DNA of 64,000 nt, from contig CAZJRM010000001.1 of NCBI GenBank assembly GCA_964547975.1, positions 5,774-69,773 on the forward strand, written 5' to 3'. Made by a program: the position numbers and the translations under genes. This DNA is from an uncultured Vicinamibacterales bacterium. Its GTDB lineage: Bacteria > Acidobacteriota > Vicinamibacteria > Vicinamibacterales > JAKQTR01. Below, in pieces: positions 9,684 through 60,537 of the stretch. Within the stretch, counting starts at the first letter, position 1; every line of letters begins with the position of its first letter. The notes below the pieces were generated by a model. The model was not told where the DNA came from, searched no databases, and was given only the letters and a program-made list of their open reading frames with translations.

Positions 9684-9710
9684 CGGGGGCTGGCTGAAGC
9701 CAGCCCCCAC
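9684..9710 (-). repeat. REP-like hairpin copy R1 (10-bp stem GGGGGCTGGC / 4-nt loop / GCCAGCCCCC, flank CGTGG on the minus strand)
   Basis: A perfect inverted repeat read directly from the sequence. It is intergenic, and the same architecture occurs at five other sites. Confidence 0.8.
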
Positions 9711-9748
9711 GATGCAGGCCGGGGGCCGAGAGCCGGATTGGAGCACGC

Positions 9749-16384: not shown

Positions 16385-17431
16385 GTGAAGGTCTCCGACT
16401 TCGTTTTCGACCTCCCCGAGCGCCTGATCGCGCAGTTCCCGCCCGAGGTCCGCGGCGCATCGCGGTTGCTCGTCCTCGAGCGGGCGCCCGGCGCCGTCAC
16501 GCACGCGTCGATGGCCGACCTGCCGCGCTGGCTGCGTCCCGGCGACGTGCTCGTGGCCAACGACACGCGCGTGTTCCCGGCGCGCCTGCTCGGGACGCGC
16601 GAGCCCGGCGGCGGCGAAGTCGAGTGCCTGCTGGTCTCTCGGGTAGACGAGGCGCACTGGGAGGCGCTCGTGCATCCCGGGCAGCGGATGAAGCCCGGGC
16701 GCCGCCTGCGATTCGAGCGGGCCGGGTTCGTCCTTCACGGCGAGGTGCTCGAGCAGCGATTCTTCGGCCGGCGCCTCGTGCGACTGTGGACCGACGGGGC
16801 GGGGCCGGTGATGCCGGTCGTCGAGGCCATCGGACACATCCCGCTGCCACCCTATATCCACCGACCGGACCTCGACCTCGATCGCGACCGGTATCAGACG
16901 GTATTCGCGCGCGAGACCGGTTCGATCGCGGCGCCGACGGCAGGTCTGCATTTCACGCCGGAGTTGCTGGCTTCGCTTGAGGCGATGGGCGTCGAGCGCG
17001 TGCATGTCACGCTGCACGTGGGTTACGGCACGTTCAAGCCCGTCCGCGTGGAGGACGTCGAGACGCACACCGTGGACCCGGAGCGGTATTCGATTTCGCC
17101 AGACGCGGCGGCGTCCATCAACCGCGCGCTCGACCAGGGGCGGCGCGTGGTGGCGGTGGGGACGACGACGACCCGGGCGCTGGAGTCGTCAGCGCTGGCG
17201 GGGGGCGGAAGAGTCGTGGCGGGCGAGGCCGAGGCGTCGCTGTTCATCTACCCCGGGCATGGGTTTCAGGTGGTCGGCGCCCTGGTCACGAACTTCCACC
17301 TGCCCGGGTCGTCGCTGCTGATGCTGGTGGGGGCGTTCGGGGGCGTGGACCCCGTCATGCGCGCCTACGCTGAAGCTGTGAGGCAGGAATACCGATTCTA
17401 CAGCTACGGGGATGCCACGCTCGTGGTGTGA
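16385..17431 (+). CDS. queA: S-adenosylmethionine:tRNA ribosyltransferase-isomerase QueA
   Basis: GTG start. VSDFVFDLPERLIAQ.P, HFTPELL, AVGTTTTRALES, FYSYGDA. Confidence 0.9.
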   Translation: MKVSDFVFDLPERLIAQFPPEVRGASRLLVLERAPGAVTHASMADLPRWLRPGDVLVANDTRVFPARLLGTREPGGGEVECLLVSRVDEAHWEALVHPGQRMKPGRRLRFERAGFVLHGEVLEQRFFGRRLVRLWTDGAGPVMPVVEAIGHIPLPPYIHRPDLDLDRDRYQTVFARETGSIAAPTAGLHFTPELLASLEAMGVERVHVTLHVGYGTFKPVRVEDVETHTVDPERYSISPDAAASINRALDQGRRVVAVGTTTTRALESSALAGGGRVVAGEAEASLFIYPGHGFQVVGALVTNFHLPGSSLLMLVGAFGGVDPVMRAYAEAVRQEYRFYSYGDATLVV

Positions 17432-17502
17432 CCTAAAAGGGGGCCTGTCCCCCTTTCTGTTGGCGGGCGGTCAGACCTAAAAGGGGGCCTGTCCCCCTTT
17501 CT
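17430..17502 (+). terminator. Tandem duplicate (44-nt offset) of a 29-nt unit; each copy holds an AAAGGGGG-CCTGT-CCCCCTTT hairpin
   Basis: The units at 17430-17458 and 17474-17502 are identical. Each has a perfect 8-bp stem. The first copy starts inside the queA stop codon. Confidence 0.6.
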
Positions 17503-24444: not shown

Positions 24445-24470
24445 GGGCCGGCTGAAGCCGGCCCGCCACG
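24445..24470 (-). repeat. REP-like hairpin copy R3 (GGGCCGGC / TGAA / GCCGGCCC, flank CGTGG on the minus strand)
   Basis: Perfect 8-bp inverted repeat just upstream of the tilS start. Confidence 0.8.
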
Positions 24471-34424: not shown

Positions 34425-34449
34425 CGTGGGGCAGGGCTTCAGCCCTGCC
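34425..34449 (+). repeat. REP-like hairpin copy R4 (CGTGG + GGCAGGGC / TTCA / GCCCTGCC)
   Basis: Perfect 8-bp inverted repeat in the spacer before the dehydrogenase gene. Confidence 0.8.
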
Positions 34450-34490
34450 TGACAAGAGGCAGCGCGACTCCGCGACAGGATGACCCGCTC

Positions 34491-35451: not shown

Positions 35452-36132
35452 ATGCCACCACGCGCGCTGCCCCTGCCGAATCCCCGGGACGTCGAGTGGA
35501 CCATGCGCCGCCTGGCGCGTGCCATCACCGGCCTCGAGCTCCCCGTCGTCGAGAAGATCGCCGAAGCCCAGAAGGAAGACGCCTTCCAGGTGCTCATCGC
35601 GACATTGCTGTCGGCGCGTACGCAGGATGCGACCACGGCGGCGGCGTCCGGACGCCTGTTCGCGGCGGCTCCGGACGCGAAGACAATGGCGACGTTGCCG
35701 GTGAAGCGGATCGAGAAGCTGATCTATCCCGTGAGCTTCTATCGGACGAAAGCCGTCCACGTGAAGGAGACGTGCCGTCTCCTCCTCGACACCTTCGGTG
35801 GGCGGGTGCCGGGCACGATGGACGAGCTGCTGACGCTGCCGGGCGTCGGCCGGAAGACGGCAAACCTCGTGCTGATCCTGGGCTTCAAGAGCCTGCGCAA
35901 CATCTGCGTCGACACGCACGTGCACCGCATCTCGAACCGTATGGGCTGGGTGCGGACCCGCACGCCCGACGAGACCGAGCAGGCGCTCTACGAGCGGACG
36001 CCGGCCCGCTGGTGGCCGTATATCAACCTGTACCTCGTGACGTGGGGCCAGAACGTCTGCCGCCCGATCACGCCGAAGTGCGGCGAGTGCGTGCTGGTGG
36101 AGCGATGCCCGAGGCTGGGGACTGGCACCTAG
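35452..36132 (+). CDS. nth: Endonuclease III (Nth)
   Basis: I trimmed the track ORF to ATG 35452. HhH-GPD (LPGVGRKTANLVL, VDTHVHR) and a 4Fe-4S Cys cluster C-x6-C-x2-C-x5-C (CRPITPKCGECVLVERC). Confidence 0.85.
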   Translation: MPPRALPLPNPRDVEWTMRRLARAITGLELPVVEKIAEAQKEDAFQVLIATLLSARTQDATTAAASGRLFAAAPDAKTMATLPVKRIEKLIYPVSFYRTKAVHVKETCRLLLDTFGGRVPGTMDELLTLPGVGRKTANLVLILGFKSLRNICVDTHVHRISNRMGWVRTRTPDETEQALYERTPARWWPYINLYLVTWGQNVCRPITPKCGECVLVERCPRLGTGT

Positions 36133-36133
36133 C

Positions 36134-36279
36134 GCCTGGAGCCTGGGGCCTGGAGCCTGAACTGAGCTCGACCTGAAGCCGGAGTCGTGCGGGATCCTGG
36201 CTCTGCAGGCCGAGAGCCGTGCGCCTCCACGAGCCGCCAACCGCCAACCGCGAGCCGCGAGCCGTGAGCCATGAGCCTG
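36134..36279 (+). repeat. Heptanucleotide tract A: GCCTGGR x4 (36134-36161) and GAGCCGC-type x7 (36231-36279)
   Basis: Read directly: GCCTGGA GCCTGGG GCCTGGA GCCTGAA; then GAGCCGC CAACCGC CAACCGC GAGCCGC GAGCCGT GAGCCAT GAGCCTG. Confidence 0.8.
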
Positions 36280-36282
36280 ATG

Positions 36283-36288
36283 TATCAT
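36283..36288 (+). promoter_or_regulatory. -10-like box TATCAT (context ATGTATCAT) downstream of tract A
   Basis: It shares the TGTAT..T context with the boxes at 38030-38037 (minus strand) and 60530-60537. No -35 is recognisable. Confidence 0.35.
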
Positions 36289-36347
36289 TCCCCCGTCGGG
36301 AGCGTATCGGTACGCCACCCGGCGCGTTTCTTTCAAGGAGTGAACTC

Positions 36348-36896
36348 ATGCGGCAGGTTTCTCGTGTCGTCGTGGCGCTGGCGTGTGCCGCGTCGTGGGC
36401 GGTTGGGGCCGGAATCGCGTCGGCGCAGCCGGCGCCCGCGGCAGGCAACCCCATCGTCGTGATCGAATTGCCCAGGGGCTCCGTCACCATCGAGCTGTAT
36501 CCGGCGGAGGCACCCAAGACCGTCGAGAACTTCCTGAAGCTGGTCAAGTCCAACTTCTACAACCGTCAGCACTTCCACCGGGTCGAGGGCTTCGTCGTCC
36601 AGGTCGGCGACCCCGATTCGAAGAGTCTCGATCGCAAGGACAGCTGGGGCCGTCGCGGCAACGGCAAGCCCATTGGCGTGGCCGAGATCAGCAAGAAGCT
36701 GAAGCACATCAAGGGTGCCGTGGGGATGGCGCACGCCGGCGATGCCACGAAGGCCGACAGCCAGTTCTACATCACCAAGCTGCCGAGAAAGATCCCCGAA
36801 GGGCAGTACGCGATATTCGGACAGGTCATCTCGGGGATGGATGTGGTCGACAAGATCGAATTGGGGGATCTGATCAAGCGGATGTATGTAAAATAG
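36348..36896 (+). CDS. ppiA: Periplasmic cyclophilin-type peptidyl-prolyl isomerase
   Basis: I trimmed the track ORF to ATG 36348 (SD AAGGAG, signal peptide). FHRVEGFVVQVGDP, FYIT, FGQVISGMDVVDKI. Confidence 0.9.
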   Translation: MRQVSRVVVALACAASWAVGAGIASAQPAPAAGNPIVVIELPRGSVTIELYPAEAPKTVENFLKLVKSNFYNRQHFHRVEGFVVQVGDPDSKSLDRKDSWGRRGNGKPIGVAEISKKLKHIKGAVGMAHAGDATKADSQFYITKLPRKIPEGQYAIFGQVISGMDVVDKIELGDLIKRMYVK

Positions 36897-36997
36897 GCTT
36901 GTCCGGCAGGGCGCGCAGCGACCCAGAGGCGAATCCGGGAACGACCTGTCACCACCGATGTGGTTGGCGTTCCGGCGAATCAACTTTGAGCCAGCGA

Positions 36998-38023
36998 CTA
37001 CTCCTCTGAGTCAGCGTCCCCTGCCGGCTCTTCTGTCTCTGTCCCGTCCATGCCCTCGAATAGCCCTTCTGGCGGCCTTCGCGTTTCCGCGGCCGCGAAC
37101 GGCCGCATGAACGGGTAACGCTTCAGCATCTCCTCCGAGTACCGTCCCGCGACCGGCTCTCCAATCTGGTGTTTCATGGTCGCCGCGTTGGCGACCGCCT
37201 TCGCCGCGAAGTGGTTGTTCATGAAGACGTAGATCTTCTGGACCAGGCGACGGACGTTCGAGACGATGTCGCTGAACTCCGAGACTTCCGACGGCGAGTA
37301 CAGGTAGTTGTACCGTTCGTCTTGATGGTCGTGGGCCCACCACTTCTCGGCGTTGCGGCCGTGCAGCCGCATGTAGTAGAGACCGCGCAGGTTGGGAAGG
37401 TGGTTCTGACGGATGGAGAAGCGGAACTTGGGCTCGTCGATCTGGGCCCACGCGGCACCCAGGCCGTTGAGCAGCCCGAGGGTCTCGACGACCCGATCGC
37501 TCCAGCTCCGGTGCCGGAGTTCCACCGCCACCGGGTAGGCCCTGAATGCCTCGAGCAGCCAGGCGAGGTACGCGCGTGTATCGGGGGCATCGCGGAAACT
37601 CGGTGGGAATTGCGCCAGGAGGGCGCCGATCTTGCCCGCGCGGGCCAGCGGATCGATGGCGGTTCTGAACGCGTCCACATCCGCCATCGAGACCACCGGC
37701 AAGGCCGACGTGACCGCGTCGGCCGGGGGCGCGCCGCCGTGGGCGTGTTGGTACATGGCCGGGTGCGTGAACTTCTGGAAGAGCTTCATCGCGAAGTCGA
37801 AGTCGGCTGGCGTTCGTTTCGCCCACGCGCGCGTCGTGTCGGGGGTCGGAAGGCGGTAGAAGCTCGAATTCACCTCGACCGTGTTGAAATGTTCGGCGTA
37901 ATACGCCAGTTCGTCGAAACGCCTGCCCCCGGAAGACCGGGAAGCCGGATAGAAGATCCCGTTCCACGTCCCCTGCCCGGACGGATAACTCCAACCGGAG
38001 GTGCCGATGCGCACGTCGCCCAT
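36998..38023 (-). CDS. DUF72 (UPF0759) family protein
   Basis: I trimmed the track ORF 36998..38161 to ATG 38023. The extension only translates the repeat tract (PFPVPYRLFPFP..). It has the family N-terminus VRIGTSGWSYPS and an acidic C-terminal tail. Confidence 0.85.
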   Translation of the reverse strand: MGDVRIGTSGWSYPSGQGTWNGIFYPASRSSGGRRFDELAYYAEHFNTVEVNSSFYRLPTPDTTRAWAKRTPADFDFAMKLFQKFTHPAMYQHAHGGAPPADAVTSALPVVSMADVDAFRTAIDPLARAGKIGALLAQFPPSFRDAPDTRAYLAWLLEAFRAYPVAVELRHRSWSDRVVETLGLLNGLGAAWAQIDEPKFRFSIRQNHLPNLRGLYYMRLHGRNAEKWWAHDHQDERYNYLYSPSEVSEFSDIVSNVRRLVQKIYVFMNNHFAAKAVANAATMKHQIGEPVAGRYSEEMLKRYPFMRPFAAAETRRPPEGLFEGMDGTETEEPAGDADSEE

Positions 38024-38029
38024 GGGGGG

Positions 38030-38035
38030 ACTATA
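38030..38035 (-). promoter_or_regulatory. -10 box TATAGT (context GTGTATAGT) 6 nt upstream of the DUF72 ATG; predicts a leaderless mRNA
   Basis: The minus strand reads CGTGTATAGTCCCCCCATG. Confidence 0.45.
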
Positions 38036-38244
38036 CACGGAGGGGAAAGGGAATAGGCGATAGGGAACTGGGAAAGGAAAGGGGAAGGGGAATAGGCGAT
38101 AGGGAACAGGGAAAGGGAACCGGGAACAGGGAAGAGGGATCAGGCGAGAGGCTAGAGGCAACGGCCGCGTGCCGGAAGCCGGAAGGCGAGCGCCTGGGGT
38201 CGGTGAGCAAGGTCGAAAGCCTGAAGCCGCGAGCCACGAGCCGG
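38036..38244 (+). repeat. Heptanucleotide tract B, filling the divergent DUF72/queE intergenic region
   Basis: A 20-bp perfect direct repeat GGGAATAGGCGATAGGGAAC occurs at 38049-38068 and 38088-38107. The stretch 38119-38244 reads as 18 heptamers in one register (ACCGGGA ACAGGGA AGAGGGA TCAGGCG AGAGGCT AGAGGCA ... AAGCCTG AAGCCGC GAGCCAC GAGCCGG). Confidence 0.8.
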
Positions 38245-38250
38245 TAGAAT
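38245..38250 (+). promoter_or_regulatory. -10 box TAGAAT 12 nt upstream of the queE ATG (near-leaderless)
   Basis: GGTAGAATAGTACCGTCGCCATG. The same TAGAATAG octamer appears in the tRNA promoter. Confidence 0.45.
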
Positions 38251-38262
38251 AGTACCGTCGCC

Positions 38263-38904
38263 ATGTTGACGATCAGCGAGATCTTCCATTCGATTCAGGG
38301 CGAGTCGTCGTACGCCGGCTTGCCGTGTGTCTTCGTGCGCCTCGCGGCCTGTGATCTGCGATGTGCCTGGTGCGACACGCCGTACGCGTTCACCGGCGGC
38401 ACGAAGATGTCGATCGACGACGTGATCGCGTCGGTCGAGCGGACCGGTTGCCGGATCGTCGAGGTAACGGGCGGCGAGCCGCTCCTGCAGGACGACGTCT
38501 ACCCGCTGATGGCGGCCCTTCGGGACCGGGGCCTGACGGTGCTGCTGGAAACGGGCGGCCACCTGCCCATCGACCGCGTACCCGCCGGCGTCGTGCGAAT
38601 CGTCGACGTGAAATGCCCGGCGAGCGGCGAGTCGGCGCGCAACCACTGGCCCAATCTCGAGGTGTTGCGCCCGTCCGACGAGGTGAAGTTCGTGATCCAG
38701 GACCGCGCCGACTACGATTTCGCGAAGCAGGTCGTGAAGCGGCACCACCTCGCGGGACGCTGCGCGGGCGTGCTGTTCTCGCCGGTTCACGGCGTCCTGG
38801 CGCCGGCACAGCTGTCGGAGTGGATCCTGGCCGACCGCCTGGACGTGCGGCTGCAGCTGCAGGTGCACAAGTACATCTGGGCGCCGGACACGCGCGGAGT
38901 CTGA
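38263..38904 (+). CDS. queE: 7-carboxy-7-deazaguanine synthase QueE (radical SAM)
   Basis: [10 protein letters not shown] and Cys cluster [12 protein letters not shown]. Confidence 0.9.
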
Positions 38905-38905
38905 C

Positions 38906-39577
38906 GTGAACGCCGTACTGCTGTTGAGCGGGGGCCTCGATTCCTACACCGCCGGCGCGATGGCCCGCGCCGAGGGGTTCGATCTGCACGCCCTCAGCGT
39001 CGTCTACGGACAGCGCCACGCCATCGAACTCGAGGCGGCCCGCCGCGTCGCCTCGGCGCTGGGCGTCACCCGCCACGTCGAGCTGTTCCTCGACCTGTCC
39101 GCGTTCGGCGGATCGTCCCTCGTCGGCGACGGCGCAGTGCCCAAGGATCGGGCCGTCGATGCCCGGGACATCCCGAGCACGTACGTGCCGGCGCGGAACA
39201 CGATCTTCCTGTCGCTGGCGCTGGGATGGGCCGAGTCGCTCGGGGCGCGCGACATCGTCATCGGCGTGAACGCGCTCGACTACTCGGGCTACCCGGACTG
39301 CCGGCCCGAGTTCGTCCGGGCATTCGAGCACCTCGCGAGCGTCGCGACGCGCGCCGGCGTGGAAGGACGGCGCGTCAGGGTGCACACGCCCCTCATCGAG
39401 ATGACCAAGGGCCAGATCATCCGGCGGGGCCTCGAACTGGGGCTCGACTACGGCCTGACCCACAGCTGCTACGACCCCGGCGACGCCGGGAGGCCGTGCG
39501 GCCGCTGTGACAGTTGCCTGCTGAGAGCGCGCGGATTTGCAGAGGCCGGCGTGCCGGACCCTGTCCTGTCGCGTTGA
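38906..39577 (+). CDS. queC: 7-cyano-7-deazaguanine synthase QueC
   Basis: PP-loop LLLSGGLDS and C-terminal zinc Cys cluster ([12 protein letters not shown]). GTG start. Confidence 0.9.
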
Positions 39578-39580
39578 ACA

Positions 39581-39635
39581 CGTGGCGTCCGGCTTCAGCC
39601 GGACGCGGCAGGGCTGGCTGAAGCCAGCCCCCACG
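39581..39635. repeat. REP-like doublet R5/R6 in inverted orientation
   Basis: CGTGGC-GTCCGGC/TTCA/GCCGGAC (39581-39604) and GGGCTGGC/TGAA/GCCAGCCC-CCACG (39611-39635). Confidence 0.8.
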
Positions 39636-39669
39636 CGAGCCGAAAGTCGCGAGCCGAAAGCCGAAAGCC
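39635..39669 (+). repeat. Heptanucleotide tract C (5 units)
   Basis: GCGAGCC GAAAGTC GCGAGCC GAAAGCC GAAAGCC, ending 6 nt before the ATG at 39676. Confidence 0.75.
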
Positions 39670-39675
39670 GTCCCT

Positions 39676-40878
39676 ATGACCGATCGTCTCTACTACTCCG
39701 ATTCGAACGGCCTCGAATTCGACGCCATCGTGCAGGCCTGCGAGACCGTGGATGGCCGCAGCCAGGTCACGCTGGACAGGACCGCGTTCTACCCGACCTC
39801 CGGCGGCCAGCCGTACGACACCGGCACGCTCGGTGACGCGTCCGTGACCGACGTCATCGATCTCGACGATGGGCGCATCGCGCACGTGGTCGATCGCCCG
39901 CTCGCGCCGGGCGCGACGGTGCGCGGGCGCATCGATGCCGCGCGGCGGTTCGATCACATGCAGCAGCACACCGGCCAGCACATCCTCTCGGCCGCGTTCG
40001 ACCGCCTGTCCGGTGCTCGCACGGTGGGATTCCACCTCGGGGCCGTCGTCTCGTCGCTGGACCTGGACAAGGTGCTGTCAGCGGAATCGCTGGCGGCCGC
40101 CGAGGACGAAGCCAATCGGATCGTCTGGGAGAACCGTCCTGTGGCCATTCGGTACGCCACGCCGGAGGACGCCGCCGGACTGCAGCTGAGGAAAGAGCCG
40201 ACCCGCACCGGGCCCCTGCGCATCGTGGAAGTGCCGGACTTCGACCGGTCGGCGTGCGGCGGGACCCACGTCGCGCACACCGCGCAGGTGGGTGTCGTGG
40301 CGATTCGATCGTGGGAGAAGCTGCGCGGCGGCCTCCGGATCGAGTTCGTGTGCGGCGGGCGCGCGGTCCGGGAGTTCCGCCGCCTGCGCGACACGGTCGC
40401 CGGCGCGATCCGCTACGTTTCGGTATCGCCCGAAGAACTGCCGGCCGCGATCGAACGCCTGCAGCTGGACAGCAAGGCACAGCAGAAGGCGCTGCGGGGA
40501 TTCCAGGAGCAGCTCGCGGCTCACGAAGCGGCGGCGATGGTCAGCCGGGGCGTGAAACAGGGGGACGTCACGGTCGTCGTCGAGGCGCCCGACGGCTGGG
40601 ATCAGTCGGGCCTCAAGGCGCTGGTGTCGCAGGCCATTGCACAACCTGGCGTCGTGGTCGCGGCCCTGTCCGCGTCCGAGCCGCGCGCGATCGTCATCGG
40701 CCGTTCCGCCGGCGTGGCGGCGGACGCCGGCGCGATCCTGAAGGACCTGGTCGCGCAGTTCGGCGGGAAGGGGGGCGGGCGCCCCGACCTCGCGCAGGGC
40801 GGCGGACTGTCTGGCTCGATCGACACGGTGCGGTCCGCGGCGCTGGCCGCCATCGGACGGTCGCTCAGCGGCGGCTGA
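39676..40878 (+). CDS. alaX: Alanyl-tRNA editing protein, AlaX-L type (AlaRS second-additional domain + DHHA1-like)
   Basis: FYPTSGGQPYDTG, zinc motifs HTGQH and CGGTHV, C-terminal GGKGGGRPDLAQGGG. Confidence 0.8.
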   Translation: MTDRLYYSDSNGLEFDAIVQACETVDGRSQVTLDRTAFYPTSGGQPYDTGTLGDASVTDVIDLDDGRIAHVVDRPLAPGATVRGRIDAARRFDHMQQHTGQHILSAAFDRLSGARTVGFHLGAVVSSLDLDKVLSAESLAAAEDEANRIVWENRPVAIRYATPEDAAGLQLRKEPTRTGPLRIVEVPDFDRSACGGTHVAHTAQVGVVAIRSWEKLRGGLRIEFVCGGRAVREFRRLRDTVAGAIRYVSVSPEELPAAIERLQLDSKAQQKALRGFQEQLAAHEAAAMVSRGVKQGDVTVVVEAPDGWDQSGLKALVSQAIAQPGVVVAALSASEPRAIVIGRSAGVAADAGAILKDLVAQFGGKGGGRPDLAQGGGLSGSIDTVRSAALAAIGRSLSGG

Positions 40879-51154: not shown

Positions 51155-51385
51155 ATGGCCACCTGTCCGGAATGCGACTTCGAAATCGACATCGACGAGT
51201 ACGATGCCGACAAGGGCGACACGCTCGAATGTGACAACTGTGGCGTGCGCCTGGAAGTCGTCAGCCTGAATCCCATCGAACTCGACGTCGTGGCCGACGA
51301 AGACGAAGAGGACGACGACGAGGACGAGGACGAGGACGAAGACGAAGAAGACGACGACGACGATGACGAGGACTGGGACCAGTGA
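51155..51385 (+). CDS. LysW/amino-group-carrier-protein-like zinc ribbon with a 26-residue poly-Asp/Glu tail
   Basis: I trimmed the track ORF 51071..51385 to ATG 51155 (SD GAGGAGG). MATCPECDFEI..GDTLECDNCGVRLEVVSLNPIELDVV, then a D/E run, then the terminal EDWDQ. Confidence 0.7.
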   Translation: MATCPECDFEIDIDEYDADKGDTLECDNCGVRLEVVSLNPIELDVVADEDEEDDDEDEDEDEDEEDDDDDDEDWDQ

Positions 51386-55455: not shown

Positions 55456-56031
55456 ATGCACCGCTGGACTCGATTGGCCGTTATTGCGGTCGCCTGCCTG
55501 GTGGTAGGGCTGTCTGTTTCGTGCGCGAAGAAGGCCCCTGCCGCGGCGCCTGCTCCACCGCCGCCGGCGCCCACCACTCCGCCACCGCCGCCACCACCAC
55601 CGCCGCCACCACCACCGCCTCCGGCTCCGGCGCCGAAGCCGCTGACCGAGGACGAGGTGTTTGCCAACAAGTCGCTCGACCAGGTGAATGCCGAGAAGCC
55701 GCTGCAGGACGTGTCGTACGACTACGACAAGGCCGAGTTGAGCGAGGCGGCACGCGCGGCTCTGCAGAAGAACGCCGAGTGGCTGCGCCGCTGGCCGAGC
55801 ACCCGGATCACGATCGAGGGTCACTGCGACAATCGCGGGACCAACGAGTACAACATCGCGCTGGGTGACCGGCGCGCGGCCGCTGCCCGCGATTACCTGG
55901 TGACGCTCGGGATCCCGACGACGCGGATTCTGTCGGTCTCCAAGGGCGAAGAGTCGCCGTTCTGCACCGAGGACACCGAGGCCTGCTTCGCGCAGAACCG
56001 CCGCGGCCACTTCGTCGTGACGGCAAAGTAG
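55456..56031 (+). CDS. pal: Peptidoglycan-associated lipoprotein Pal (OmpA-like C-terminal domain) with a poly-Pro linker
   Basis: Lipobox LSVSC, Pro-rich linker, OmpA_C motifs (GHCDNRGTNEYNIALGDRRA). SD GGAGG. Confidence 0.85.
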   Translation: MHRWTRLAVIAVACLVVGLSVSCAKKAPAAAPAPPPPAPTTPPPPPPPPPPPPPPPAPAPKPLTEDEVFANKSLDQVNAEKPLQDVSYDYDKAELSEAARAALQKNAEWLRRWPSTRITIEGHCDNRGTNEYNIALGDRRAAAARDYLVTLGIPTTRILSVSKGEESPFCTEDTEACFAQNRRGHFVVTAK

Positions 56032-56043
56032 GGTACGAAGGAA

Positions 56044-56072
56044 GGGCCGTCGAACATGGTGTTCGACGGCCC
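56044..56072. terminator. Perfect 13-bp hairpin between the convergent pal and pyrF genes
   Basis: GGGCCGTCGAACA-TGG-TGTTCGACGGCCC. Confidence 0.6.
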
Positions 56073-56138
56073 GTCGTGTGTCGGTCGGCTCTCGGCGTTC
56101 GGCCCTCGGCCTCGTCCTTCACGCCTCCCGCCTCTTCC

Positions 56139-56864
56139 CTATCCCCTGATCTCCGCGTTCAAGGCTTCCGCTGCGGCGCGCGGATCGGCGGCGGCCACGA
56201 TGGGACGTCCCACGACAATGTAACTCGCGCCCGCTCGCACGGCATCCCCGGCGCTCAGGGTTCGCGCCTGGTCGTCCTTCGGCCTGGCGCCTTCCGGCGA
56301 GGCCGGCCTGATGCCGGGCGTGACGAGGATGAAGTCGTGTCCGCAGGCCCGGCGCACCTGGCCGATTTCCTGCGGCGACGCGACGACGCCATCGAGGCCC
56401 GCGTCTTGCGCCAGGCGGGCGAGGGCGTCGACTTGATCGACCACCGGGCGTGTCACGCCGATCGAACCGAGGGTGGCCTGGTCGAAACTCGTGAGCACCG
56501 TGATGGCGATCACCAGCGGCGCGGTGTGGCCGGCCCTGGCCGCGGCGTCGTGCGCCGATTCGCGCGCGGCGCGCATCATCGCGGCGCCGCCCGCGGCGTG
56601 GACGTCGAAGAGCCACACGCCCAGGCGGGCCGCCTCGGCGGCCGCGCCGGCGACGGTATTCGGGATGTCGTGGTACTTCAGGTCGAGGAACACGCGGAGC
56701 CCCGTGTCGACGAGCTGGGACACGATCCGCGGCCCCGCCGCCGTGAAGAGCTGGCTGCCGACCTTCACGGCGCCGACAGCCCCCCGGAGGGTATCGGCCA
56801 GGGCGAGCGCGCGATCGGCGCTGTCGACATCGAGCGCGACAATGATGCGGTTGTCGTCGGTCAT
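56139..56864 (-). CDS. pyrF: Orotidine 5'-phosphate decarboxylase
   Basis: IVALDV, DLKYHDIPNTV, VTPGIR. Confidence 0.9.
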   Translation of the reverse strand: MTDDNRIIVALDVDSADRALALADTLRGAVGAVKVGSQLFTAAGPRIVSQLVDTGLRVFLDLKYHDIPNTVAGAAAEAARLGVWLFDVHAAGGAAMMRAARESAHDAAARAGHTAPLVIAITVLTSFDQATLGSIGVTRPVVDQVDALARLAQDAGLDGVVASPQEIGQVRRACGHDFILVTPGIRPASPEGARPKDDQARTLSAGDAVRAGASYIVVGRPIVAAADPRAAAEALNAEIRG

Positions 56865-58630: not shown

Positions 58631-58637
58631 GGCGCTC

Positions 58638-58646
58638 AGTATAACA
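58638..58646 (-). promoter_or_regulatory. Extended -10 TGTTATACT 7 nt upstream of the pyrK ATG; predicts a leaderless pyrK-pyrD-pyrF mRNA
   Basis: The minus strand reads GAGTTGTTATACTGAGCGCCATG. Confidence 0.5.
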
Positions 58647-58687
58647 ACTCACGCCCCATGTCCCATGCCCCTGCCTCCGTTGTGCGG

Positions 58688-58695
58688 TAGAGTAT
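58688..58695 (+). promoter_or_regulatory. -10-like TAGAGTAT 7-9 nt upstream of the ATG at 58703 (leaderless or near-leaderless)
   Basis: GGTAGAGTATCGTCGAGATG. Confidence 0.4.
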
Positions 58696-58702
58696 CGTCG
58701 AG

Positions 58703-60436
58703 ATGCGCTACGCGAGGATGCTCACAAACGCGATGCTGGGCGGCTTCGCCTTGGCCGCCTACCTGACGATGCTCGTCCTGCATCTCAATCCGCGGTATCC
58801 GCTCGGGGCGATGCCCTACCTGGCCGGGACGCTGGTGGCCTCGTACGGGCTCAACATCACCGCGGCCTTCTACGGCCTGATCGTCCTTCGGCAGCTGCTG
58901 TCGACCGAAGTCCTGTCGCCCGGGTGGATCAGCTACCGGTTTCTCGTCTGGCTCTCGGCGGTCGCGACCACGCTGGGCACCGCGCTCATGTGGGCGAACC
59001 TCCGCGGCTTTCGCAACGTCCTGAGTGAGCCGTCGGTCCGGCGCATGGCCGGCGCGGCCGCGGCCCTGACGCTGTGCGCGGCCATCTGCATCGTACTGGT
59101 CGTCATCCACCGCGTGTCCGGTCGGCGCAGCACCAAGGGGCGCGCGGCCGTCCTCGGGGTCACGATGATCGCGTCGATGGCCGTGCCGCTGACGTTACGA
59201 GGGCCCGGCATCGGGGCGGGCCGGCCGGCCCGCGTGCCCCCGCCGATGGCCGCCATCGGGCCCGCGTCATCCGACGCCCGAGTCGTCGTCGTGGCCCTGG
59301 AAGGCGCGTCGCTCGACATCATCGTCCCGGCGGCCGCCCAGGGCCGGCTGCCGCACCTCGCCCGCATCCTGCAGTCCGGCGCGTGGCTGCACATGGCCAC
59401 GATCAAGCCGACCCAGCCGAGCACCGTCTGGACCGCGGCCGCGACGGGCAAGCTGCCCGTCCGCAACGGCGTCCGCTCGGCGGCGACGTACTTCCCCATC
59501 GGCAGCCGCGACGGCCTCGAGATGCTGCCGGACTACTGTTTTGCCCACGCCCTCGTGCGGTTCGGATTCGTGACCGAGCGGGCACACGAGAGCGGTGACC
59601 TGGCGGCCCTGCCGCTGTGGAGCATCCTGTCGAACCAGGGCGTGAGCGTCGGCGTCGTGAACTGGTCGGTCACGCAGCCGGCCAGGCCCGTACTGGGGTA
59701 CCTGGTCTCGGATCGGTTCAAGGCCGGCTTCGAGGCCTCGCTCGAGCTGATCGGCTCGAACGCCATCTGGCCGCGCGAGGCCGTGACGACGGCCGTGGCG
59801 GCGGCCCAGCGGCGTCCGGCCGCCGACGGGCGGCCGGCGGCGCAGCCGCTCAAAGCCCCGGCCGCCGCGCGGTGCGAAGCGGATCGCATCTTCGATCGGA
59901 TGACCGGTGACCTCGAAACGCAGATGCCCGCCCGGTTCCGTGCCGTGCGCTACGAGTGTCTGAACGCGGTCGGGCAGTTCTACCTGCGCTTCACCGTGCC
60001 GGGGGCGTTCGGTGACGTGACGGAAGAAGAACTACGCCGCTTCGGAGGCGTTCTCACCTCGCAGTACATCAACGCGGACACGATCGTCGGGCGCGAGTTG
60101 GACGCCCTCCGTCCCGGTGACCTGCTCATGGTCGTGTCGGGCTACGGCGTCGAGCCTCTCGACCCTGGCAAACGGCTGCTGGAACGCCTCATGGGGAATC
60201 CCGACCTGACGGGAACCCACGAACGCGCGCCCGACGGATTCCTGATGGCGTTCGGCACGGAAGTGAAGCCCGGCCACTACCCGCGGTCGTCGATCGTCGA
60301 CCTCGCGCCAACCCTGCTGTACTACCTCGGCCTGCCGGTCGGCCGCGACATGGACGGCTACGCCCGGACGGACCTCTTCCATCGCACGTTCACCGACGCC
60401 CGTCCGATGACGTTCATTCCCACGTACGAAAGATAG
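58703..60436 (+). CDS. Membrane-anchored alkaline-phosphatase-superfamily protein (type I phosphodiesterase/NPP-like)
   Basis: About 5 N-terminal TM helices, then VVVALEGASLD..LPHL and PTQPSTVWTAAATGKLPVRNGV, which resembles the NPP nucleophile region. Confidence 0.55.
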   Translation: MRYARMLTNAMLGGFALAAYLTMLVLHLNPRYPLGAMPYLAGTLVASYGLNITAAFYGLIVLRQLLSTEVLSPGWISYRFLVWLSAVATTLGTALMWANLRGFRNVLSEPSVRRMAGAAAALTLCAAICIVLVVIHRVSGRRSTKGRAAVLGVTMIASMAVPLTLRGPGIGAGRPARVPPPMAAIGPASSDARVVVVALEGASLDIIVPAAAQGRLPHLARILQSGAWLHMATIKPTQPSTVWTAAATGKLPVRNGVRSAATYFPIGSRDGLEMLPDYCFAHALVRFGFVTERAHESGDLAALPLWSILSNQGVSVGVVNWSVTQPARPVLGYLVSDRFKAGFEASLELIGSNAIWPREAVTTAVAAAQRRPAADGRPAAQPLKAPAAARCEADRIFDRMTGDLETQMPARFRAVRYECLNAVGQFYLRFTVPGAFGDVTEEELRRFGGVLTSQYINADTIVGRELDALRPGDLLMVVSGYGVEPLDPGKRLLERLMGNPDLTGTHERAPDGFLMAFGTEVKPGHYPRSSIVDLAPTLLYYLGLPVGRDMDGYARTDLFHRTFTDARPMTFIPTYER

Positions 60437-60530
60437 GGAATAGGGAACAGGCGATAGGGAAGAGGGAAAGGGAAGAGGCGAGGGGCGAGAGGCGAGAGGC
60501 GCAAGCCGAGAGCCGAGAGCCGAAAGCCGT
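60433..60530 (+). repeat. Heptanucleotide tract D (14 units in one register)
   Basis: ATAGGGA ATAGGGA ACAGGCG ATAGGGA AGAGGGA AAGGGAA GAGGCGA GGGGCGA GAGGCGA GAGGCGC AAGCCGA GAGCCGA GAGCCGA AAGCCGT. It begins at the stop codon of the upstream gene. Confidence 0.85.
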
Positions 60531-60531
60531 G

Positions 60532-60537
60532 TATACT
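60532..60537 (+). promoter_or_regulatory. -10 box TATACT (context GTGTATACT) for the pyrR operon
   Basis: It directly follows the last heptamer. The PyrR-type hairpin begins about 8 nt downstream. Confidence 0.45.

Follow-up and report, generated by a model that had tools for sequence, protein, structure and literature searches.

The intergenic spacer between a DUF72 gene and queE in an uncultured Vicinamibacterales bacterium contains a long array of heptanucleotide units, which we regard, with a probability of about 0.62, as a slippage-type intergenic heptanucleotide array that acts as a variable spacer between two self-sufficient -10-only promoters. The spacer (positions 38024-38262; 239 bp, 62% G+C) separates two divergently transcribed genes in a stretch of 64,000 nucleotides of contig CAZJRM010000001.1, hereafter the window, and the array, here termed tract B, runs from 38041 to 38244. 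Tract B has the defining features of known intergenic heptanucleotide simple sequence repeat (SSR) arrays: its 7-nt units recur beyond chance, it is non-coding, it belongs to a dispersed family with members at other sites, and it varies between relatives. It does not behave as a phase-variable contingency SSR, its units being heterogeneous and the tract lying outside both -10-to-start intervals and open reading frames (ORFs).

The self-match of the spacer at a lag of 7 nt is 0.54, compared with 0.32 in dinucleotide shuffles (z 7.8, a value reached in 0 of 1000 shuffles), with harmonics at lags of 14 (z 6.2) and 21 nt (z 4.4) against the same type of shuffle. Tandem Repeats Finder (TRF) describes tract B as period 7 with 15.3 copies and 70% matches; it is among the longest arrays of a class whose median length is 34 nt. 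A higher-order repeat is superimposed on the heptamers at the DUF72 end, where TRF reports a 39-nt tandem duplication (38041-38137, 2.4 copies, 86% matches) that was also recovered, at 89%, as family D2 in a repeat search. Unit positions 1, 3 and 4 (A-n-A-G) are almost invariant, and along the tract the units change from GGGA-type to GGCn-type to GCCn-type (Table 1); the GC-rich centre, at 38161-38216, is periodic only weakly. The sequence facts that an earlier note had recorded for this spacer were all verified, including the 20-mer GGGAATAGGCGATAGGGAAC, present twice (starting at 38049 and 38088), the 13-mer AGGCGATAGGGAA (starting at 38055 and 38094, and again at 60449 in another array of the window, tract D), and the two -10-like hexamers, TATAGT 6 nt from the DUF72 ATG and TAGAAT 12 nt before that of queE. 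The note had also counted 18 heptamers in one register over 38119-38244; the register stands, and its extent is greater, with 22 units following one another unbroken from 38091 to 38244.

Two coding readings of tract B were considered and rejected, namely an extended DUF72 start at TTG-38161 and a 77-aa minus-strand ORF at 38031-38264, each of which only translates the 7-nt repeat. The rejection rests also on the orthologues: in tblastn searches the DUF72 alignments start at residues 1-4, in agreement with ATG-38023 as the start codon, and most orthologues lack such DNA altogether.

Comparison was based on QueE scans that returned 160 related loci, of which 80 came from a genome collection (nearly all of them labelled as metagenome-assembled genomes of Vicinamibacterales or Acidobacteriota) and 80 from unlabelled metagenome contigs. 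The closest QueE in the genome collection has 76% identity and the closest in the metagenomes 89% (contig L081); the latter contig starts inside queE and therefore offers no orthologous upstream spacer. Both genes of the window very probably use -10-only promoters that yield a leaderless mRNA for DUF72 and a near-leaderless one for queE, as the earlier note had proposed. In 65 of 156 related loci a TAnAAT hexamer occurs 5-20 nt upstream of the queE start, whereas 1.5 would be expected, and the gap between hexamer and start has its mode at 11-12 nt across these loci, as in the window. The type and distance of the queE hexamer are matched in L001, L082, L090, L092, L117, L024, L025, L028 and others; in the first five, which are the nearest relatives, TAnAAT stands 11 nt from the queE start, and the DUF72 start is preceded at about 20 nt by TACAAT, TAGAAT or TAAGAT. 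DUF72 orthologues in general carry TANNNT 6-21 nt from the start. In a sample of start codons with spacers of at least 25 nt, dominated by queE and DUF72 orthologues, TANNNT shows a peak 6-7 nt before the start, as is characteristic of leaderless mRNAs, and a Shine-Dalgarno (SD)-like core is found at only 16% of these starts.

The absence of -35 boxes remarked on in the earlier note was borne out, with no sigma-70 -35/-10 pair in 35900-39900 and a best queE -35 candidate, found by eye, that matches at 3 of 6 positions; a promoter and terminator scan of the DUF72/queE spacer returned nothing. The context of the queE -10 hexamer, TAGAATAGTA (38245-38254), gives TACTAT when read on the minus strand, a feature that recalls the overlapping divergent -10 regions of relatives, and the motif TAGAATAGT stands 12 nt from the queE ATG both in the window and in L024. 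The predicted transcription start sites follow from the spacing between hexamer and start codon. Promoters of the -10-only type drive leaderless mRNAs in Actinobacteria and Deinococcus, and the promoters described here resemble them, with a TANNNT peak 6-7 nt before the start across the data set, no -35 box and low use of SD sequences. As far as the searchable literature shows, such promoters are undocumented in Vicinamibacterales.

The divergent DUF72/queE arrangement is present in 126 of the loci. In about 50 of them a small additional ORF lies between the two genes (its product ends in ...FGFDKDRYGKL; for example L007:3642-3990, minus strand), which is absent from the window. The 76 direct spacers range from 14 to 239 bp, that of the window being the longest: 46 measure at most 60 bp, 16 measure 61-100 bp and 14 exceed 100 bp. 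Short spacers, commonly 20-30 bp (L024, L025, L028, L116, L133, L144 and others), contain one AT-rich element in which a -10 hexamer can be read in either direction, for example CTAAAATAGTAGG or CATAGAATAGTGA, and hold no repeats. The position of a -35 box then falls within the neighbouring gene. Judged by their hexamers, these compact spacers would give leaderless or nearly leaderless mRNAs both ways.

Orthologous spacers are mostly free of repeats. A lag-7/8 self-match threshold of 0.45 is passed by 9 of the 16 spacers of 61-100 bp and by 5 of the 14 longer ones; L001 (0.44), L092 (0.41) and L090 (0.36) fall just under it, yet arrays are visible in them on inspection. Where arrays are present, their units are unrelated to those of tract B, in either orientation and on either side of the -10 hexamer. 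They lie between the two -10 boxes in the window and in L001, L090, L092 and L117, and downstream of the -10 box, in the 5' untranslated region (UTR) and up to the queE start, in L004, L047, L035, L121 and L146. In L001 and L090, among the nearest genomes, the array is an inverted pair placed exactly between both -10 boxes and is probably not transcribed. Arrays of period 8 (CAATCCTG, GCAGGATT) occupy the heptamer positions upstream of queE in L103, L026 and L100.

Arrays of this kind are widespread in the lineage. A TRF census of 1.21 Mb of the related loci gave 130 arrays for period 7, against 43 for period 8, 29 for period 13, 16 for period 11 and 4 for period 10, while period 5 did not occur. 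Among the tandem-repeat periods not divisible by 3, period 7 is therefore by far the most frequent, at about one array per 9 kb. A crude GC3-based gene caller, which in the parts of the window used to check it (33-42 kb and beyond 57 kb) agreed with ORFs and Pfam matches, places 119 of 128 arrays in intergenic DNA, and the other 9, scored as 'coding', look like over-extended start codons. All tracts in the window are intergenic. Arrays are found in 67 of 346 tandem, 21 of 123 divergent and 11 of 61 convergent spacers, or about 18% of each, and many of them start 0-16 nt past the upstream stop codon and fill the entire spacer. Unit sequences differ widely between genomes (CCAACCT, GATCCCT, CACTTGG, CAGAAGC, GGGATYS and others), and pairs of arrays share a repeated 7-mer in 13 of 65 comparisons within a locus (20%) compared with 310 of 8038 between loci (3.9%). 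No report of heptamer arrays in Acidobacteria was found in the searchable literature.

An inverted partner array lies near 56 of the 128 arrays (44%), compared with 1 in a reversed-but-not-complemented control, and the strong folding of such pairs is reflected in z values of -3.4 to -6. In L047, L035, L157 and L039 (upstream of queE, about 85-115 nt), L071 and L151:1890-1960 the pairs form long hairpins, with z values in this same range, between the -10 box and the queE start. Between species, a change of unit in one arm is accompanied by a change in the other (GGGATCC/GGATCCC, GGGACTC/GAGTCCC), which indicates either that pairing is selected or that template switching homogenises the arms.

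Between closely related genomes, the divergence of arrays is similar to that of third codon positions, with identities of 0.879 against 0.884 in L070/L073 and 0.889 against 0.928 in L030/L036, the array values being BLAST-based and inflated, since repeats align in any register and alignable parts alone were counted. Because repeat alignments are biased upward in this way, identities from distant pairs were not used as evidence of constraint. Change can also be abrupt. In L036:366-450 a single 51-nt indel relative to L030 and L141, at third-codon identities of 0.90-0.93, adds an inverted arm and loop to an array of single orientation, so that one mutational step can suffice for an array or hairpin pair to arise or be lost. 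L081, the closest relative, has the array that follows queC (tract C in the window) in the same position and with the same nGAGCCn unit family. The queC frame of that contig enters a heptamer array (L081:1330-1387), and its TAA stop codon comes from a repeat unit.

Within the window, tracts A, B, C and D were found by TRF and the lag-7 scan and the others by reading every intergenic spacer (Table 1). Six sites in the 64 kb share AGGGA, AGGCG or AGCCG units; the three unit-type patterns have 21, 15 and 22 matches, where 1.9, 0.9 and 5.1 are expected, and are essentially confined to these tracts. Tract A ends 5 nt before a TATCAT hexamer (36283-36288). The start of tract D falls inside the stop codon of the phosphodiesterase-family gene upstream. 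Tract E occupies a convergent spacer opposite an OmpA-family gene and runs into a hairpin that resembles a terminator (56044-56072). Between tracts B and D, identity amounts to 84% over 44 nt and to 70% over 101 nt ungapped, and tract E is 78% complementary to D over 37 nt. As the earlier note had observed, the block order GGGA, GGCG/GGCn, GCCn, -10 hexamer of B recurs in D. Since B, D and E align with one another, they constitute a shared composite module. The module is not specific to promoter-upstream positions, because tract E, with the same order, follows the pyrF stop codon in a convergent spacer. The common block order is itself less telling than it appears, since GGGA, GGCG and GCCG are mutational neighbours, which forces the middle type and leaves the polarity alone free; the chance that D and E would both share the polarity of B is about 1/4. 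A mini-array in a 72-bp spacer (58631-58702) resembles tract B on a small scale, being flanked by divergent -10-like hexamers, TATACT on the minus strand and TAGAGT on the plus strand.

Table 1. Coordinates of tract B, its flanking genes and promoters, and other repeat sites in the window
Feature	Positions	Strand	Details
DUF72 gene	36998-38023	-	ATG at 38023-38021; protein MGDVRIGTSGW...; Pfam PF01904, E 3.9e-56
DUF72 -10 hexamer TATAGT	38030-38035	-	reads ACTATA on the plus strand; 6 nt from ATG; spacing predicts leaderless mRNA
Tract B, 39-nt higher-order unit, two copies	38041-38118	+	each copy holds GGGAATAGGCGATAGGGAAC (38049-38068, 38088-38107)
Tract B, nnnGGGA-type heptamers	38091-38139	+	at least 85% purine; contains G-quadruplex motif 38102-38138
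Tract B, nnAGGCn heptamers	38140-38160	+	TCAGGCG AGAGGCT AGAGGCA
Tract B, degenerate GC-rich centre	38161-38216	+	register kept, GAAGCCG GAAGGCG ...; no significant secondary structure
Tract B, nAGCCnn heptamers	38217-38244	+	AAGCCTG AAGCCGC GAGCCAC GAGCCGG; abut queE -10 box
queE -10 hexamer TAGAAT	38245-38250	+	12 nt before ATG; predicts leader of about 5 nt
queE	38263-38904	+	7-carboxy-7-deazaguanine synthase-type radical-SAM protein; Pfam Radical_SAM
queC	38906-39577	+	directly after queE; Pfam QueC
Tract A	36133-36277	+	GGAGCCT / GAGCCGn; starts 1 nt past stop of HhH-GPD (endonuclease III-type) gene
Tract C	39634-39670	+	GAGCCGA / AAGCCGA; after two hairpins; ends 5 nt before AlaX-like ATG (39676)
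Tract D	60433-60529	+	ATAGGGA, then AGAGGCG, then AGAGCCG; ends 2 nt before TATACT (60532-60537)
Tract E	56080-56140	-	order GGGA, GGCG, GCCG; begins at pyrF stop (TAG inside ATAGGGA)
Small AGCCG-type site	9717-9734		same unit families as tract B
Mini-array	58653-58675	+	GCCCCAT, 3.4 copies

According to the reading favoured here, arrays would grow and change by replication slippage and local duplication, of which the 39-nt duplication in tract B would be an example, and template switching would probably turn single arrays into inverted pairs. The arrays of the window genome would represent one unit family, A-n-A-G followed by GGA, GCG or CCG. Tract B would sit between two older -10-only promoters, one giving the leaderless DUF72 mRNA and the other a queE mRNA with a leader of about 5 nt, and would shift these divergent promoters about 210 bp apart. 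It is taken to be mainly variable spacer DNA because in many relatives both promoters overlap within 20-30 bp; it would be neither a -35 nor an UP-element substitute, and would be unneeded for promoter function. Several observations weigh against this reading. The unit family, 13-mer and block order common to tracts B, D and E are not predicted by slippage purely in situ, and arrays A, B and D all stop 0-5 nt from a -10-like hexamer. Hairpin-type arrays of the distant orthologues L046 and L051 are 81% identical, where third codon positions are near saturation at 54%, and some arrays of this type may be constrained, although such identities are inflated by the alignment of repeats. Moreover, nothing tested here accounts for the 7-nt size of the unit.

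The rival explanations differ in whether they assign tract B a role through structure, through transcription, through protein binding or through its own propagation. The G-rich, purine-rich strand could form G-quadruplex (G4), triplex or slipped structures when negatively supercoiled, take up or sense the supercoils that transcription generates, and thereby tune or insulate both promoters, with the inverted-pair arrays of relatives acting likewise via cruciforms. A canonical G4 motif (G3N1-7 x4) is present in tract B, its only one and one of three in the 64 kb; a purine content of at least 85% over 60 nt is reached only in tracts B and D, each of which has a 23-nt pure purine run; and both the inverted partners of 44% of the lineage's arrays and the exact placement of the pairs in L001 and L090 would fit. 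Heptamers of the GGGAATC type from Xanthomonas form G4 in vitro (PMC4692102). However, the GGCG and GCCG units that make up most of tract B lack G3 runs, as do most arrays of relatives, the module recurs in the 3' convergent spacer of tract E, and most orthologous promoters work without such an element, which makes a structural role at the DNA level unlikely, even though it ranks first among the rivals. The H-DNA-forming element suggested in the earlier note is doubtful for a further reason: a scan for mirror arms of at least 8 nt returned none, where arms of roughly 10-15 nt or longer are expected of such a motif, the only symmetry being a 14-nt mirror noticed by eye (GGGAAAG-GAAAGGG), and the longest pure purine run, at 38070-38092, is that of 23 nt. 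A structured RNA or DNA reading of tract B was rejected, its fold being no better than that of shuffles (z -0.02 as DNA, -0.14 as minus-strand RNA) and no Rfam family, whether a CsrB/RsmZ-type GGA sponge, a riboswitch or another, matching; in the window only tRNA reached the Rfam gathering score, and nothing relevant appeared at E up to 10 in 37950-38330. These results also bear on the proposal, which we consider very improbable, that tract B works as RNA, either as a C-rich unstructured DUF72 leader for Rho loading or protein binding, transcribed from the distal minus-strand TACTAT in TAGAATAGTA or by read-through, or as a GGA-rich sponge RNA from the plus strand. A minus-strand transcript of the tract would indeed be very C-rich and G-poor, and arrays of L004, L047, L035, L121 and L146 reach the start codon within the queE 5' UTR and fold strongly (z -3.4 to -6), just as the TAACTGA heptamers of Beggiatoaceae stand just upstream of starts with few ribosome-binding sites (RBSs) (PMC4679880). 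In the window, however, both conserved -10 boxes face away from tract B, no terminator or promoter pair is predicted inside it, and neither strand has structure beyond that of shuffles.

The earlier note had proposed, as one of two possibilities, a promoter-upstream module that may substitute for the -35 boxes; the heptamers would then bind a regulator or RNA polymerase and replace a -35 or UP element at one or both promoters. The near-invariant A-n-A-G positions, the absent -35 boxes and the way in which tracts A, B and D end 0-5 nt upstream of a -10-like hexamer, always with AGCC-type units proximal, speak for such a module. Against this, the 46 of 76 direct orthologous spacers of 60 bp or less often hold one overlapping -10 region and no repeats, and are too short for any upstream element; both promoters are self-sufficient, and tract B is therefore not a -35 substitute. 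Relatives carry unrelated units in either strand orientation and on either side of the -10 hexamer, including downstream of it, arrays are as frequent in convergent spacers as elsewhere, and tract E lies in a 3' region. The spacer is purine- and G-rich and, at 62% G+C, unlike an A/T-rich UP element. The note had named the absence of the tract from relatives' orthologous spacers, with unchanged expression, as the outcome that would count against its proposal, and, expression measurement aside, that absence is what was found; we consider such a module quite improbable. The other suggestion of that note, a duplicated selfish element, can be framed as a module of the form [GGGAAnA]n-[AGGCGAn]n-[AGCCGAn]n that spreads by copy-and-paste through recombination or an unknown mobilising activity, and would account for the order, 13-mer, identity and complementarity common to B, D and E, for the identical 25-nt hairpin that precedes AGCCG units both at tract C and at the 9717 site, and for the genome-specific unit families with their frequent inverted doublets. 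REP/REPIN elements are likewise abundant extragenic repeats, often inverted doublets that form hairpins, in genome-specific families, and the arrays of this lineage are similar in all three respects. They differ in that the arms here are tandem heptamers and not one palindrome of 20-40 nt, and tract B, which folds no better than shuffles, is neither palindromic nor an inverted doublet. No defined ends, target-site duplications, terminal inverted repeats or associated gene were seen, and no transposase was noticed beside any tract, although none was searched for; copy numbers and boundaries are ragged, and the unrelated units in relatives' orthologous spacers fit turnover in situ. A mobile origin consequently appears unlikely, if slightly less so than a regulatory array. 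Similarly unlikely is a lineage-wide functional system, whether of cruciform, slipped-strand or G4 switches that couple supercoiling to -10-only leaderless promoters or of arrays maintained by an unknown heptamer-specific activity, under which tract B would be a single-arm variant insulating two ancestrally overlapping divergent promoters.

Several further repeats in the window adjoin these tracts or resemble them. The 25-nt hairpin, GGGCTGGCTGAAGCCAGCCCCCACG, is found in two intergenic spacers, at 9690-9714 and 39611-39635, with AGCCG-type heptamers after it in each. Other genes are followed by comparable GC-rich hairpins that have GCTGAAGC or GCTTCAGC at their centres (39586-39605, about 24450-24470 and about 34440-34460), and together they look like a REP-like or terminator family that shares a GAAGCC/GGCTTC motif with the heptamers. 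In one intergenic region a hairpin that resembles a terminator, ACCTAAAAGGGGGCCTGTCCCCCTTTCT, is present twice in tandem (17425-17458 and 17469-17502), with 94% identity between the copies. The stop codons (TAG) before tracts D and E form part of the first ATAGGGA unit. The idea that ATAGGGA units act as three-frame translational backstops was dropped, most units in relatives having no stop codon. Low-complexity repeats in coding DNA comprise GACGAA/GAGGAC (Asp/Glu-rich) and CCACCGCCG (Pro/Ala-rich) runs, at 51296-51381 and 55540-55619, the CCACCGCCG run lying upstream of an OmpA domain; unlike the intergenic heptamers, both have periods that are multiples of 3.

The best-described counterparts are the GGGAATC heptamers of Xanthomonas and the GGGGAYT heptamers of Nostoc PCC 7120, which are intergenic, dispersed, G4-forming in vitro and variable between related genomes (Rehm et al. 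2015, PMC4692102). They have no identified regulatory role, and polymerase slippage was proposed as their origin; heptanucleotides have been known since 2007 to be in excess in the intergenic DNA of bacteria, which is still unexplained (PMC4692102). As quoted there, Mrazek et al. (2007) proposed that the preference for 7 nt is tied to the polymerase active site. Xanthomonas campestris has 186 arrays per genome, with divergent spacers depleted (PMC4692102). The arrays described here are alike in consisting of tandem 7-nt units in non-coding DNA, with many dispersed arrays of one family, in having GGGAAnn-type units with G4 potential, occasional inverted pairs and no link to gene function, and in varying, within one and the same spacer, in length and sequence from one related genome to another. 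Their position is also alike, near the ends of ORFs, with the G-rich strand being the coding strand downstream of a gene (tracts D and E) and the non-coding strand upstream of one (tract B relative to DUF72). They differ in belonging to Acidobacteriota, in having units graded within an array (GGGA to GGCG to GCCG) and mostly without G3, and in the wide variation of unit families between related genomes. With the X. campestris genome taken as about 5 Mb, the density here, about 1 per 9 kb, is roughly 3 times higher; divergent spacers show no depletion, and an inverted partner accompanies 44% of the arrays.

Cyanobacteria also have heptanucleotide repeats, named short tandemly repeated repetitive (STRR) sequences. 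These are similar in being intergenic tandem heptamers of several unit types and dispersed, and differ in their low-GC units and in their phylum. To our knowledge, no relation of STRR sequences to leaderless -10-only promoters has been described. Their first description, as cited in PMC4692102, was in Calothrix PCC 7601. TAACTGA direct repeats are known from marine Beggiatoaceae and some Cyanobacteria and Bacteroidetes (MacGregor 2015, PMC4679880). They are likewise intergenic heptamers that often end a few nucleotides before starts lacking an RBS, comparable with tract C and many arrays of relatives. However, TAACTGA is a single conserved heptamer common to different genomes, whose sets comprise 2-6 copies and are almost never inverted, whereas units here are diverse and arrays longer, and tract B stands upstream of both promoters and not in a leader.

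For genome annotation, these observations mean that heptamer tracts yield spurious long ORFs and false N-terminal extensions, such as that of DUF72 at TTG-38161. Uncultured soil Vicinamibacterales, whose arrays number about one per 9 kb, belong to many unit families and often form inverted pairs, may be among the densest and most diverse cases of heptamer arrays. Around the same two genes, DUF72/queE spacers form a natural series that extends from 20-bp overlapping promoters to a 239-bp repeat-filled spacer, and this series allows a direct test of the effect of an array on promoter output, on supercoil coupling and on mRNA leaders.

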